From contig JAZUBZ010000021.1 in assembly GCA_045638805.1 (NCBI GenBank), positions 1-52,986 on the forward strand: a DNA stretch of 52,986 bases, given 5' to 3'. The translations under genes were made by a program, and so were the position numbers. This DNA is from Eubacteriales bacterium (GTDB lineage Bacteria > Bacillota > Clostridia > Oscillospirales > CAG-272). The notes beneath the pieces are model-generated. The model had not been told where the DNA came from, made no database searches, and saw only the letters and a list, made by a program, of their open reading frames with translations. Shown here piece by piece: positions 47,458 through 49,959 of this stretch (positions are counted from its first letter, which is position 1; every line of letters starts with the position of its first letter).

Positions 47458-47486
47458 TTGAATTTTTGCTCATTTTGTTATATAAT
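47458..47486 (+). promoter_or_regulatory. Candidate promoter for the cofE-like / guaA-like operon
   Basis: TTGAAT, a 17-nt spacer, then TATAAT. Confidence 0.5.
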
Positions 47487-47598
47487 AAAAATGTGTTTTT
47501 TCGTATTATCGTAATGATGCGAATAGCAGTGGTGTGCCACTGCTTTCGGCACAATTTTTTTAAAGGTCTTATGACCTACAGAAAGGATTCCAAAGATT

Positions 47599-48798
47599 AT
47601 GGAACAGAACACAAGAAGAGTCGGTACAATTTCCCGCGGTATCCGCTGCCCCATCATCCGTGAAGGTGATGATCTTGCGACTATCGTAGCCGACAGCGTG
47701 CTTGAAGCTGCTAAGTACGAAGGCTTTGAGCTTCGTGACCGCGACGTCATTTCCATTACTGAATCAATCGTAGCACGTGCACAGGGTAACTATGCCTCTG
47801 TCGATGACATTGCTGAAGACGTCAGAACAAAGCTCGGCGGTGAGACCGTCGGCGTTATCTTCCCCATCCTCTCCCGTAACCGTTTCGCAATTTCTCTGCG
47901 CGGTATAGCTAAGGGAGCAAAGAAAATTGTGCTTATGCTCAGCTACCCCTCCGACGAGGTTGGTAACGAGCTTGTAAGCCTCGACAAGCTTGACGAGGCT
48001 GGTGTTAACCCTTACTCAGACGTACTCTCTCTTGAGAAGTACCGTGAGCTCTTCGGGGTAAACCTCCACGAATTCACAGGCGTGGATTACGTTGATTACT
48101 ATGCATCCATCGTTCGCGAGGCAGGCGCTGAGGTTGAGATCGTTTTCGCAAATCAGGCGAAGGCTATCCTTAACTATACAGACTGTGTTCTCACCTGCGA
48201 CATTCATACAAGAGCTCGTACAAAGAGAATTCTTAAGGCTGCAGGCGCAAAGATCGTTCTCGGTCTTGATGATATCCTCAACGCTCCCGTAAACGGAAGC
48301 GGCTGCAACGAAAAGTACGGTCTTCTTGGTTCTAACAAGTCTACCGAAGACAAGATCAAGCTCTTCCCCAGAAATGCAGAACCCCTCGTTCTTTCTATTC
48401 AGGACAAGATCCTCAAGGCTACAGGTAAGCTTGTAGAGGTTATGGTATACGGCGACGGCGCATTCAAGGATCCTCAGGGTAAGATCTGGGAGCTTGCTGA
48501 CCCGGTAGTTTCTCCTGCTTTCACACAGGGACTCGTAGGTACTCCCAACGAGCTTAAGCTCAAGTACCTTGCAGATAACGATTTCAAGGATCTCTCCGGG
48601 GAAGCTCTCCGCGAGGCTATCTCCGCAAGCATCAAGGCAAAGGGTGACAACCTTGTAGGTAACATGGCATCCCAGGGTACAACCCCCAGACAGCTTACAG
48701 ACCTTATCGGTTCTCTCTGCGACCTTACCAGCGGTTCCGGTGACAAGGGTACTCCCGTAGTCCTTGTTCAGGGATATTTCGATAACTATACAAACTGA
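47599..48798 (+). CDS. CofE-like (F420-0:gamma-glutamyl ligase family) protein
   Basis: 399 aa with ITESIVARAQGN near the N-terminus and DLTSGSGDKGTPVVLVQG near the C-terminus, resembling the F420_ligase fold. Confidence 0.65.
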   Translation: MEQNTRRVGTISRGIRCPIIREGDDLATIVADSVLEAAKYEGFELRDRDVISITESIVARAQGNYASVDDIAEDVRTKLGGETVGVIFPILSRNRFAISLRGIAKGAKKIVLMLSYPSDEVGNELVSLDKLDEAGVNPYSDVLSLEKYRELFGVNLHEFTGVDYVDYYASIVREAGAEVEIVFANQAKAILNYTDCVLTCDIHTRARTKRILKAAGAKIVLGLDDILNAPVNGSGCNEKYGLLGSNKSTEDKIKLFPRNAEPLVLSIQDKILKATGKLVEVMVYGDGAFKDPQGKIWELADPVVSPAFTQGLVGTPNELKLKYLADNDFKDLSGEALREAISASIKAKGDNLVGNMASQGTTPRQLTDLIGSLCDLTSGSGDKGTPVVLVQGYFDNYTN

Positions 48799-48817
48799 TT
48801 ATTAAAGGAGAAATAAT

Positions 48818-49819
48818 ATGAGCAACAACGTAAGACCCGAAAACATGGCTCGTATCACTACTCCCGAGCTTGCAAAGGCCTTCATCGACGAGCAGATCGC
48901 CGAGGTCAGAGCTCAGGTTGGCGATAAGAAAGTGCTTCTCGCCCTCTCCGGCGGTGTAGACTCATCAGTAGTAGCTGCACTTCTCGTAAAGGCAATCGGC
49001 AAGCAGCTTGTTTGTGTACACGTAAACCACGGTCTCATGAGAAAAGACGAGTCCGAGAACGTTATCAAGATCTTCCAGGCCGAGCTTGATGCTAACCTTA
49101 TTTATGTAGACGCTACCGACCGTTTCCTCGACCTTCTCGCAGGCGTTGCTGATCCCGAGAAGAAGAGAAAGATCATCGGTGCTGAATTTATCAACGTATT
49201 CGCTGACGAGGCTCGCAAGCTTGAAGGTATTTCCTTCCTCGCTCAGGGTACTATCTACCCCGACATCCTTGAGAGCATCAAGGCAGCTGAGGGCAAGAAG
49301 GCAGTTAAGTCTCACCACAACGTAGGCGGTCTTCCCGAGGACCTTCAGTTCGATCTCGTTGAGCCTATCAAGCTCCTCTTCAAGGATGAAGTAAGAGTTG
49401 TTGGTGAAGCTCTCGGTCTCCCCCATGCAATGGTATACCGTCAGCCCTTCCCCGGTCCCGGCCTCGGCGTACGCTGTCTCGGTGCTATCACACGTGACAG
49501 ACTCCACGCTCTCCGTGAGGCAGACGCTATCCTTCGCGAGGAGTTTGACAAGAACGGTCTCGCTGAGAAGGTATGGCAGTACTTCATCGCAGTACCCGAC
49601 ATCAAGAGCGTAGGCGTACGTGACGAAAGCCGTTACGAAGGCTGGCCGGTAATCATCCGCGCGGTAAATACCACCGACGCTATGACCGCAACTATCGAGG
49701 AGATCCCCTATTCCATCCTCCATCACATCACAAACCGTATCACTCACGAGGTTGAAGGAATCAACCGCGTACTGCTCGACTTAACACCCAAGCCGATCGG
49801 TACTATCGAGTGGGAATGA
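48818..49819 (+). CDS. guaA: GMP synthase ATP-pyrophosphatase plus dimerisation domains only (no GATase domain)
   Basis: 333 aa. PP-loop LALSGGVDSSV begins about 40 aa from the N-terminus. KSHHNVGGLP, FPGPGLGVR and the C-terminal PIGTIEWE align with the C-terminal two-thirds of GuaA. Confidence 0.85.
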   Translation: MSNNVRPENMARITTPELAKAFIDEQIAEVRAQVGDKKVLLALSGGVDSSVVAALLVKAIGKQLVCVHVNHGLMRKDESENVIKIFQAELDANLIYVDATDRFLDLLAGVADPEKKRKIIGAEFINVFADEARKLEGISFLAQGTIYPDILESIKAAEGKKAVKSHHNVGGLPEDLQFDLVEPIKLLFKDEVRVVGEALGLPHAMVYRQPFPGPGLGVRCLGAITRDRLHALREADAILREEFDKNGLAEKVWQYFIAVPDIKSVGVRDESRYEGWPVIIRAVNTTDAMTATIEEIPYSILHHITNRITHEVEGINRVLLDLTPKPIGTIEWE

Positions 49820-49917: not shown

Positions 49918-49959
49918 AAAGAGCTAACAGATTTTTGTTACAAAGTCTGTTAGCTCTTT
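49918..49959. terminator. Bidirectional terminator at the chromosome / mobile-element junction
   Basis: 14-bp stem aaagagctaacaga / tctgttagctcttt, flanked by T-rich runs on both strands. Confidence 0.7.

Follow-up and report, generated by a model that had tools for sequence, protein, structure and literature searches.

A GMP synthase without a glutamine amidotransferase domain in Clostridia, and its CofE-like operon partner as a candidate enzyme of the AMP branch

Introduction

How is GMP made by a bacterium whose GMP synthase has no glutamine amidotransferase (GATase) domain, and why is the gene for that synthase preceded by one for a CofE-like protein? Both questions are raised by a locus in a 52,986-nt stretch of Eubacteriales DNA (contig JAZUBZ010000021.1; the whole stretch is hereafter the window), in which a 333-aa GuaA is encoded just downstream of a 399-aa protein related to the F420-0:gamma-glutamyl ligases. 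Reviews of GMP synthetase (GMPS) describe the bacterial enzymes as two-domain and glutamine-dependent. An earlier note, made from the sequence of the window alone, offered two readings of the pair: an ammonia-dependent GMP synthase, or a neofunctionalised adenylating enzyme that, together with the ligase, handles a non-canonical substrate.

Operon structure

Both open reading frames lie where the earlier note had placed them, with the CofE-like gene upstream and a gap of 19 nt, and together they form a two-gene operon bracketed by a promoter-like site and a terminator (Table 1). Because the stop codon of the first gene falls 19 nt before the guaA start, a GATase domain cannot be attached to the second. 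At about 20 related loci the promoter hexamers can be aligned 5' of the CofE-like gene, whereas the leader sequence is unconserved; the GAAAGGA motif is kept in close relatives. A hairpin at 47526-47543 was considered as a leader control element and rejected, as it is not conserved. A search of the 780-nt gap upstream of the CofE-like gene against Rfam returned nothing at gathering or E-value thresholds, and no riboswitch was found by Rfam upstream of this gene in 40 other loci.

Table 1. Features of the two-gene operon, in coordinates of the window
Feature	Position	Strand	Description
Promoter-like site, sigma-70-type	47458-47486	+	TTGAAT, 17 nt, TATAAT; 10/12 matches
Ribosome-binding site GAAAGGA	47581-47587	+	11 nt 5' of the CofE-like ATG
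CofE-like gene	47599-48798	+	399 aa
GuaA ATP-pyrophosphatase-only gene	48818-49819	+	333 aa
Intrinsic-terminator-like hairpin	49918-49959	+	18 pairs, then a T-run; closes the operon

The short GuaA

The 333-aa protein qualifies as a GMP synthetase ATP-pyrophosphatase unit by the curated cut-offs of TIGR00884 (guaA_Cterm; 439.4 bits, cut-off 338.75), NF000848 (full GuaA; 464.4 bits, cut-off 400) and PF00958 (120 bits, cut-off 27). The NF000848 match covers profile positions 195-512 only. Present are the ATP-pyrophosphatase and dimerisation domains; missing is the N-terminal class I GATase domain with its Cys-His-Glu triad. With the PP-loop SGGVDSS starting at residue 44, the motif KSHHNVGGLP and a C-terminal TIEWE, the protein is indeed the C-terminal part of GuaA that had been recognised from the sequence. 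Among proteins of known structure it scored 360 bits against 7sbc, 348 bits against 1gpm and 313 bits against 6jp9, the last being subunit B of the Methanocaldococcus jannaschii (Mj) enzyme; matches to NAD synthase models were weak and lay around the PP-loop.

Conservation of the active site was assessed with motif definitions from a GMPS review (PP-loop SGGxDS, lid IK(T/S)HHN, and the Asp and Glu of PDxxES; PMC10526850), which names as essential the residues that are kept in the short GuaA. Across 22 short forms the PP-loop (S44-S50) is invariant, as are D149, E152, K164, H166 and N168, while position 167 is His in 21 of the 22; K189, R193, Q254, R272, R317, K325, I330 and E331 are likewise invariant. 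The clade has kept the whole XMP-binding C-terminal loop (K325, I330, E331), its partner arginine (R317) and the trans-subunit arginine (R272), equivalent to Mj K302, I307, E308, R294 and R249. The lid motif begins with V instead of the canonical I (VKSHHN). The GVMGDxRTY loop around Arg272, described as invariant across all GMPS, is relaxed in the short forms: these retain just its G, V and R, and positions 268-271 and 273-275, which are fixed in full-length forms, vary within the clade. D70N and F288A are fixed changes in the clade and, together with the relaxed loop, may count against canonical activity.

In the phylogenetic placement that the earlier note had proposed, short forms and a set of remnant forms fell into one paralogue clade (support 100/100) on a stem of 1.33 substitutions per site, nested among the full-length GuaA of Oscillospirales. 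Identity between the short and full-length GuaA of the same genome is 49-56%. The remnant forms retain the first ~76 residues of the GATase, which argues for domain decay of a fused bacterial gene and not for a split gene.

Of the 199 sampled Clostridia genomes (at least 90% complete), about 50 have no GuaA other than the short form, the host subclade included. No other form occurs in the closest relatives (G006-G009 and G015-G017), and in G039 and G096 a short copy adjoins a full-length guaA. Since the genome from which the window comes is only 71% complete, genes missing from it are judged absent on the strength of its near-complete relatives. The claim that no GATase ORF is adjacent to the short guaA was borne out, and PF00117 found no class I GATase anywhere in this 71%-complete genome.

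Might the short GuaA instead be subunit B of an archaeal-style two-subunit synthase, its GATase encoded elsewhere? Two-subunit GMP synthases exist in archaea, the score against the M. jannaschii subunit is substantial, the genome itself is incomplete, and one sampled genome (G079) encodes a separate GuaA-type GATase in an ORF of 210 aa (TIGR00888, 254.7 bits). However, TIGR00888 (E <= 1e-25) found no GuaA-type GATase in 46 of 50 short-only genomes (at least 90% complete), whereas the same search recovered the GATase in 14 of 14 reference genomes, archaea included. In five near-complete relatives the best match to a GuaA-type GATase was 27.7 bits against a cut-off of 172. In five relatives the sole PF00117 protein was HisH, with its hisBHAF operon context confirmed in both loci examined. 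The GATase remnants point to decay as well. An unlinked partner was rejected on these searches, and we regard the two-subunit arrangement as highly improbable.

IMP dehydrogenase is present (PRK07107-type, 960-978 bits). The short GuaA is thus a sole copy with no GATase subunit, an IMP dehydrogenase to accompany it and intact catalytic residues, and the reading of it as an ammonia-dependent GMP synthase is well supported. It is very probably the only GMP synthase of these bacteria, with ammonia as its likely nitrogen source in vivo. XMP would be adenylated with ATP at the conserved PP-loop/lid-loop site, and the adenyl-XMP would then be aminated by free ammonia.

Fold and identity of the CofE-like protein

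The 399-aa protein matches PF01996 (1.2e-56) and lies far below the CofE equivalog cut-offs (TIGR01916, 43.4 bits vs 180.65; NF009809, 46.4 vs 274), the equivalog matches covering residues 17-73 only. An AF2 model (pLDDT 93.4) aligned with Archaeoglobus fulgidus CofE (2phn_A) at Z 16.1 and rmsd 3.9, with 184 residues aligned at 19% identity across model range 9-394; Foldseek gave E 1.5e-8 for the model against CofE. An alpha/beta (HUP/Rossmann-like) domain of ~170 residues is inserted at about residues 80-255, and in the model it resembles USP and the ArgG N-domain (Z 6-7). P89, S92-R95, D119-N123, H157, H203 and R205 of the insert are invariant. No significant match to PDB sequences, CofE included, was obtained with the family profile; three collinear weak sequence blocks are common to the family and CofE. 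Names, cluster members and the ESM Atlas provided an automatic F420-ligase label only. The earlier note's term 'CofE-like ligase' is apt for the fold (PF01996, 2phn) but not as an F420 ligase: judged by its profile scores, this is a CofE-fold protein and not a true F420 ligase. Gut Clostridia are not known to produce F420.

Two further roles were considered for the CofE-like protein and rejected. FolC (TIGR01499) scores higher than its cut-off in 35 of 41 relatives, nearly all CofE-like carriers included, so a FolC2 role is not needed. PyrG is missing from the host subclade, but a CTP synthase substitute was rejected because neither PyrG nor the CofE-like gene occurs in G026 or G030; many genomes of the class sample with the CofE-like gene and without PurA have PyrG (PyrG positives only were used).

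Linkage of the two genes

Close homologues of the CofE-like protein are 87-99% identical. In 32 of 80 close loci a guaA gene directly follows the CofE-like gene, about half of the close loci show the linkage, and the only recurrent neighbour in these loci is an enzyme of the other IMP branch. Among 30 diverse loci, taken at class level, the pair is adjacent in two; linkage is kept in the host genus and some others, and the usual neighbour in the diverse loci is a LysR regulator, an enolase or an unrelated gene, not a purine gene. Co-occurrence, which the earlier note had suggested as a check, gave a divided answer: the odds ratio for the CofE-like gene and short GuaA is ~9.6, but the CofE-like gene stands without a short GuaA in 40 sampled genomes, and a short GuaA without the CofE-like gene in 13. 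As either gene can be found alone, the CofE-like protein is not an obligate GuaA partner. Of the two observations that together would have told against the note, a separate GATase subunit was not found, and the other, a lack of conserved linkage, is mixed, in that linkage holds in some genera and in few of the diverse loci.

These data bear on whether the two proteins are a single machine, with the CofE-like protein as nitrogen donor or channelling partner, or with a neofunctionalised GuaA working on a non-canonical substrate. The gap of 19 nt, the shared promoter and terminator, the frequent adjacency in close loci and the odds ratio would all suit such a machine, as would the long stem branch and relaxed loop of the short clade. 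Against it stand the genomes with one gene only, the rarity of adjacency in diverse loci, the two genomes in which a short copy sits beside a full-length guaA, and the retention of catalytic residues in a GuaA that is the sole one where IMP dehydrogenase is present. We consider a joint machine very unlikely. The neofunctionalised pair of the earlier note in particular is unsupported, since each gene frequently occurs alone.

Distribution of the CofE-like gene relative to PurA and PurB

Of 200 Clostridia genomes, 96 have the CofE-like gene, nearly always as a single copy. The earlier note did not foresee that its distribution is complementary to that of PurA and PurB. In a cross-table of 199 genomes, 64 have the CofE-like gene without PurA, 92 have PurA without the CofE-like gene, 31 have both and 12 have neither; thus 64 of the 76 PurA-less genomes carry the CofE-like gene, and nine of the 12 genomes with neither also lack guaA. 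Expressed for GuaA-bearing genomes, 170 of 173 have PurA, the CofE-like gene or both, and three have neither. Both exclusive states occur inside 18 of 63 families. The pattern does not depend on GuaA type: among PurA-less genomes with full-length GuaA only, 10 of 11 have the CofE-like gene. A prediction made in advance, that CofE-less relatives should have PurA, was borne out in all five. A series within the host genus runs from PurA and full-length GuaA only (G010), through canonical and alternative enzymes for both branches (G001, G004 and G005), to the alternative pair only (G000 and G007).

PurB is usually lost along with PurA. In six genomes PurB occurs with the CofE-like gene where PurA is missing. 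No genome combines PurA with the CofE-like gene but lacks PurB, and the 31 genomes in which those two occur together have PurB as well. A weak PurB-like match in G037 is ArgH, not PurB. PurB is missing in 58 genomes with the CofE-like gene, where the de novo pathway is mostly kept; most PurA-less carriers lack PurB and have purC and the rest of that pathway, with purC inside the pur operon of PurB-less genomes. Seven carriers lack PurM, and with it a de novo pathway, and six of these also lack PurA and PurB. As an observation on the same pathway in the host genome, its PurF starts MGGFFG, the Cys1 nucleophile being changed to Gly.

The complementary pattern suggests that the CofE-like protein acts in the AMP branch (IMP to AMP) as a candidate replacement for PurA, an assignment that we put forward as plausible but tentative. 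The CofE fold is a GTP-dependent ligase type in which a phosphorylated intermediate is formed and an amine joined, here with a nucleotide-binding-like insert; the enzyme may therefore activate IMP in an NTP-dependent step, with ammonia then attacking to give AMP. This direct use of ammonia is suggested because most CofE-like carriers lack adenylosuccinate lyase, although we hold that particular mechanism to be rather doubtful.

Several points weigh against a place in the AMP branch. By analogy with CofE, a carboxylate would be the expected target of activation, and what IMP has to offer is a lactam oxygen; gut bacteria without PurA might also just rely on adenine salvage. The 31 genomes with PurA, PurB and the CofE-like gene, and the three GuaA-bearing genomes with neither PurA nor the CofE-like gene, do not follow the pattern; the 40 loci show no purine riboswitch or further regulatory tie, and the diverse loci often have a LysR neighbour. 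Finally, because PurB is lost and purC kept, SAICAR cleavage is left without an enzyme in these carriers, an activity for which the AMP branch does not account.

Some of the same facts would be explained if the CofE-like protein ligated an unrelated substrate, for instance by glutamylation or amidation of a cofactor or metabolite. The anticorrelation with PurA and PurB would in that case stem from a common way of life in the gut or from streamlining of the genome, and the adjacency to short guaA only from co-regulation or shared descent. The genomes with all three genes, the non-purine neighbours in diverse loci and the lack of a purine riboswitch are as this reading would have it; a chlamydial COG1478 member acts on folate, and the SAICAR lyase gap shows that these genomes have further unassigned enzymes. 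What it leaves unexplained is the near-complete coverage of GuaA-bearing genomes (170 of 173), the recurrence of both exclusive states within 18 families, the tracking of PurA absence irrespective of GuaA type (10 of 11) and the success of the advance prediction, while FolC is present and PyrG is not complementary. An unrelated substrate is nonetheless fairly plausible in our judgement, though not favoured.

A different purine step is conceivable too, namely amidation of the CAIR carboxylate with ammonia to give AICAR, bypassing PurC and PurB. Ligation of a carboxylate and an amine is native CofE chemistry, and the 58 PurB-less carriers that mostly keep the de novo pathway are in keeping with such a step. 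It is nevertheless improbable: carriers without PurM would have no use for it, purC is kept in the pur operon of PurB-less genomes, and six genomes have lost PurA but kept PurB, with the reverse seen in none.

Taking the GuaA part and the CofE-like part jointly, we lean towards the view that the operon carries alternative enzymes for both branches leading from IMP. Such an operon would be an ammonia-based module replacing GuaA, PurA and PurB in the ammonia-rich habitat of the gut. A wider proposal, in which an undescribed, non-orthologous IMP-to-AMP aminating ligase of CofE fold that makes PurA and PurB dispensable, a GATase-less GuaA with an obligate need for ammonia and the Gly-PurF are parts of a cross-lineage shift in Clostridia from glutamine and aspartate to ammonia, is speculative and would have to be called unlikely at present.

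Implications

About a quarter of the sampled high-quality Clostridia genomes have only a GATase-less GuaA for which a partner was not found, so genome-scale metabolic models and the automatic label 'glutamine-hydrolyzing GMP synthase' are in error for many species of the gut and rumen. PurA is missing in about a third of the sampled genomes, and mostly PurB too, with the de novo pathway kept; these genomes would be read as adenine auxotrophs. The CofE-like gene, complementary to PurA and annotated as an F420 ligase, is a candidate for the missing step that lends itself to direct test. Should this hold, it would represent a new enzyme for a textbook reaction and a rewiring of central nitrogen metabolism to gut ammonia. 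A literature search found no paper tying PF01996 or COG1478 to purines and none describing a GATase-less bacterial GuaA.

Comparison with known systems

The nearest relatives of the short GuaA are the bacterial two-domain enzymes. Its ATP-pyrophosphatase and dimerisation domains are homologous to those of Escherichia coli (1GPM) and Acinetobacter baumannii (7SBC) GuaA (348-360 bits), the alignment running end to end from E. coli residue 212, and the PP-loop, the KSHHN lid, the K...IEWE loop and the XMP-contacting arginine are common to both. It differs in lacking the N-terminal GATase of ~200 residues and in belonging to a separate paralogue clade with D70N, F288A and a relaxed GVMGDxRTY loop. 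In architecture it is closer to the archaeal ATPPase subunit B (6JP9; Pyrococcus horikoshii 2DPL), which is also a lone ATPPase unit of ~310-330 aa. When isolated, the M. jannaschii subunit forms GMP with NH4+ (Km 4.1 mM; PMC10526850). Unlike the archaeal two-subunit enzyme, the short GuaA has no partner GATase gene, and its sequence is nearer to bacterial GuaA. NadE offers a further parallel, as it has a single-domain, ammonia-dependent form; a PP-loop amidating family thus exists with and without a glutaminase module, although NadE acts on another substrate and belongs to another branch of the PP-loop superfamily.

The CofE-like protein has its core fold in common with CofE (2PHN, 2G9I, 7ULD), as the Z score and Foldseek match indicate, but identity is 12-19%, the insert is additional, equivalog scores are far too low, and the family is widespread in Clostridia, where it tracks PurA absence. 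Recruitment of a COG1478 member to another ligation has a precedent in chlamydial CT611 (FolC2), which complements an E. coli folC mutant in a host without F420 (PMC1971073); the comparison is by description, and chlamydiae lack folC whereas most relatives here have it. The likeness to PurA is one of analogy and not homology. PurA has an unrelated fold and uses aspartate together with PurB, which most CofE-like carriers lack, but in both PurA and CofE GTP phosphorylates a substrate oxygen and an amino group displaces the phosphate, and the phyletic patterns of PurA and the CofE-like gene are complementary.

Gene pair and genomic surroundings

The earlier note had described two adjoining open reading frames, and both were found exactly where it had placed them, on the forward strand and 19 nt apart. 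An Opp-type ABC transporter lies 5' of the pair, and an XRE-type regulator and tyrosine integrase lie 3'. A 662-aa OppC-type permease in the window carries an RCC1-repeat (beta-propeller-like) insertion between its N-terminal transmembrane segment and its permease domain. The AT-rich segment (36% G+C) that begins right past the operon terminator is probably the terminal part of an integrative element; besides the integrase it carries genes for an XRE-type HTH protein and for a 261-aa protein with no annotation.

Coordinates of features in the window and in other genomes
Feature	Location	Strand	Description
OppC-type ABC permease	window:42223-44211	+	662 aa
Sigma-70-like promoter	window:47458-47486		upstream boundary of gene pair
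CofE-like gene (P0001)	window:47599-48798	+	399 aa
Short guaA (P0002)	window:48818-49819	+	333 aa; 19 nt after P0001 gene
Strong terminator	window:49918-49959		downstream boundary of gene pair
AT-rich segment	window:49966-52986
PurF-like gene, window's own genome (G000)	C69:531-1952	-	474 aa; outside window
PurF-like gene, relative G040	L161:7527-8951
Complete pur operon, relative G040	C6:34000-47500 (L161)
Stand-alone GATase ORF, G079	C240:3701-4261		210 aa
Tandem full-length and short guaA, G039	C122:27218-29743
Tandem full-length and short guaA, G096	C42:7594-10146

The pairing, to which the earlier note had attached functional weight, recurs across genomes but is far from fixed. In the class sample of Clostridia genomes (at least 90% complete), 55 carried both the CofE-like gene and short GuaA, 40 the CofE-like gene only, and 13 short GuaA only. 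Among 80 close loci, 32 had short guaA immediately downstream of the CofE-like gene, 5 had it at another place in the locus, and 36 lacked it despite having room; of 30 diverse loci, just 2 had the two genes side by side. Since each gene is often found alone, the two proteins are not obligate partners. The commonest neighbour of the CofE-like gene among the diverse loci (9/30) was a divergent LysR regulator. These regulators of about 300 aa (loci L130, L137, L148, L149, L152, L154-L156, and L158) are apparently transcribed divergently, and their effector might reveal the pathway of the CofE-like gene.

Probable GMP synthesis without a glutaminase

In profile searches P0002 matched the full-length GuaA model over positions 195-512 only (464 bits), bearing out its description as a pyrophosphatase without the class I glutamine amidotransferase (GATase) domain; it scored 439 bits with the model of the guaA C-terminal part. 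Residues named as essential in a review of GMP synthetases (PMC10526850) were conserved across 22 short forms with one exception (H167 to Y in one form). They are the PP-loop, the PDxxES-helix Asp and Glu, the Lys-x-His-His of the lid, the Lys, Ile, and Glu at the C-terminus with the partner Arg, and the trans-subunit Arg. Unlike canonical GuaA, the short forms have D70N and F288A fixed, and the loop around the trans-subunit Arg, invariant in other GuaA, is relaxed.

The window's genome is a metagenome-assembled genome of 1.73 Mb and 71% completeness, in which neither a full-length guaA nor any class I GATase was found; absences were therefore checked in relatives. Many of the 40 relatives carry full-length guaA and a short paralogue together. 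The window's closest kin (G006-G009 and G015-G017, 73-98% complete) and the near-complete G021, G022, G037, and G040 have short guaA only. Against the GuaA GATase model (cut-off 172), five near-complete short-only genomes reached 27.7 bits at best. Five genomes of this kind had as their sole PF00117 protein an ORF of about 205-235 aa, which in both genomes examined was HisH, in a hisB-hisH-hisA-hisF operon. Of 199 Clostridia genomes, about 50 had GATase-less GuaA only and about 18 had both forms. The GuaA GATase model, used to look for a separate GATase elsewhere as the earlier note had proposed, gave no match even at 1e-25 in 46 of the 50. Among the remaining four, two gave weak sub-cut-off GATase matches, and in G167 a full-length guaA is broken across contig ends. 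The fourth, G079, has a stand-alone GATase ORF (254.7 bits against the GuaA GATase model) alongside GuaA matches of GATase-less or remnant type; this ORF is part of a genuinely split enzyme or else of a gene interrupted in the assembly. The same search recovered the GATase in 14 of 14 reference genomes, among them archaea whose enzyme has two subunits. Because nearly all short-only genomes gave no GATase match while this control was positive, a two-subunit GMP synthase with an unlinked GATase was rejected, with one genome as a possible exception.

The IMP dehydrogenase of short-only genomes is a genuine one, of the PRK07107 type (960-978 bits). These cells thus produce XMP, and no enzyme of theirs other than short GuaA can use it. 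With essential residues kept, IMP dehydrogenase present, and no GATase partner, the earlier suggestion of an ammonia-dependent GMP synthase is supported, and short GuaA is likely that enzyme and the cell's only one. Rumen and hindgut ammonia reaches millimolar concentrations. In vitro, ATPPase units can draw on external ammonia, the isolated M. jannaschii subunit with a Km of 4.1 mM (PMC10526850).

The type of IMP dehydrogenase co-varies with that of GuaA among relatives and in the class sample: the PRK07107 type occurs in most short-only genomes, the TIGR01302 type mostly with full-length GuaA.

The CofE-like protein and its possible role in the AMP branch

P0001 matched Pfam F420_ligase at 1.2e-56 and scored 46 bits against the NCBIfam CofE equivalog (cut-off 274). 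It is extremely conserved (>8000 matches; none of the best 120 falls below 87% identity), and its family is broad, with 363 representative clusters (E<=1e-30) of proteins 370-415 aa long. Of 200 Clostridia genomes sampled, 96 encode it, nearly always in single copy. The family profile gave no significant match to CofE at the sequence level. The predicted structure (pLDDT 93.4) shares the fold of CofE (Z 16.1 against the A. fulgidus protein), with an alpha/beta domain of some 170 residues interrupting it. This insert resembles universal stress protein and the argininosuccinate synthetase HUP domain with middling scores (Z 6-7), so that only its general fold can be named from the model; invariant P89, S92, R93, N94, and R95 fall in the loop joining its first strand and first helix. 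There is a substantial chance that P0001 is an enzyme of new function.

As CofE is a GTP-dependent ligase, a missing purine ligase was sought. Five CofE-positive genomes, of which four are 98-100% complete, yielded no PurA. Across 199 genomes, 64 had the CofE-like gene without PurA, 92 PurA without the CofE-like gene, 31 both, and 12 neither; 9 of the 12 also lacked any guaA, and most were very small (0.8-1.5 Mb). One or both were present in 170 of 173 GuaA-bearing genomes. PurA-less genomes with full-length GuaA only had the CofE-like gene in 10 of 11 cases; the gene tracks PurA absence regardless of GuaA type. Both exclusive states occur inside 18 of 63 families, and thus the pattern is not one of shared ancestry. 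Five CofE-less relatives from the window's own order all had PurA, as predicted beforehand, and CofE-positive G021 lacked it. The window's genus forms a series: G010 has the canonical enzymes only, G001, G004, and G005 both sets, and G000 and G007 the alternative pair only. PurB is usually lost alongside PurA (58 CofE-positive genomes without either); six lacked PurA but retained PurB, and none was missing PurB alone. Seven carriers have no PurM, which speaks against a part in the de novo pathway, and the absence of any PurB/ArgH-superfamily lyase from several carriers argues against a succinylated intermediate.

The most economical reading of this comparative genomics is that the CofE-like protein supplies the IMP-to-AMP branch, to which we give slightly less than an even chance. 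For that role the likely mechanism is direct use of ammonia, although as a whole we consider it less probable than not: the CofE-fold enzyme would activate IMP with an NTP before attack by ammonia, and the operon would join two IMP branch-point enzymes, both ammonia-dependent. The main rival, a real possibility though one we would sooner doubt than accept, is that the protein is a ligase with no part in this branch and that its distribution simply follows lifestyle. Several points weigh against the AMP branch: 31 genomes carry PurA, PurB, and the CofE-like gene together; the known chemistry of CofE acts on carboxylates rather than lactams; a search upstream of the gene in 40 loci turned up no purine riboswitch or other link in regulation; and genomes without PurB retain purC and the rest of a complete pur operon, leaving a SAICAR-cleaving activity unexplained. 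A literature search linking PF01996/COG1478 with purine metabolism found nothing.

Other purine and pyrimidine genes

A PurF-like amidophosphoribosyltransferase in G000 starts MGGFFG, as does that of G040, with an in-frame stop just upstream of the start; it scored 160.6 bits, and both proteins fall far short of the PurF cut-off of 350. Gly stands where canonical PurF has its glutaminase nucleophile Cys. Judged by sequence, this looks like another purine enzyme unable to use glutamine, and offers coherent side support for the ammonia-based reading.

Complete pur operons were located in G040, G037, G007, and G069, in the order guaB-purE-purC-purF-like-purM-purN-purO-like-purH(AICARFT-only)-purD-purL. 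No PurB was found anywhere in these genomes; a weak PurB-like match in G037 proved to be ArgH. SAICAR cleavage is unaccounted for in 58 sampled PurB-less genomes, most with PurM. Many near-complete genomes of Oscillospirales (G006-G009, G015-G017, G021-G023, G026, G029-G031, G036, G037, and G040) gave no match to CTP synthase (PF06418). With HisH the sole PF00117 protein in these relatives, CarA seems absent too, which suggests pyrimidine salvage or other enzymes.

Origin of short GuaA and comparison with known systems

A chlamydial relative of the CofE-like protein stands in for a missing FolC (PMC1971073); P0001 does not, such a substitution being ruled out by the presence of FolC in 35 of 41 relatives, nearly all carriers of the CofE-like gene among them. 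Bacterial GMP synthetases are said to be of the two-domain type (2023 review, PMC10526850), so a GATase-less sole GuaA is a variant undescribed in the field; our literature search for one found nothing.

In a maximum-likelihood tree of the ATPPase domain, the short forms were one clade (100/100 support) bar one long-branch sequence. Its stem is long (1.33 substitutions per site), and it branches from within the full-length GuaA of Oscillospirales. In G039 and G096 short guaA lies directly downstream of full-length guaA, and adjoins that gene, not the CofE-like gene. Remnant forms of 429-449 aa (L102 in G035, L105 in G036, and in G044, G053, G056, G064, G079, G170, G172, and G230) keep the first ~76 GATase residues fused to the ATPPase unit, the catalytic part being gone, and fall inside the short clade. 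They show that short guaA is a decayed fused bacterial gene, not a transferred archaeal subunit; P0002 is likewise nearer to bacterial GuaA enzymes (348-360 bits) than to archaeal subunits (294-313 bits).
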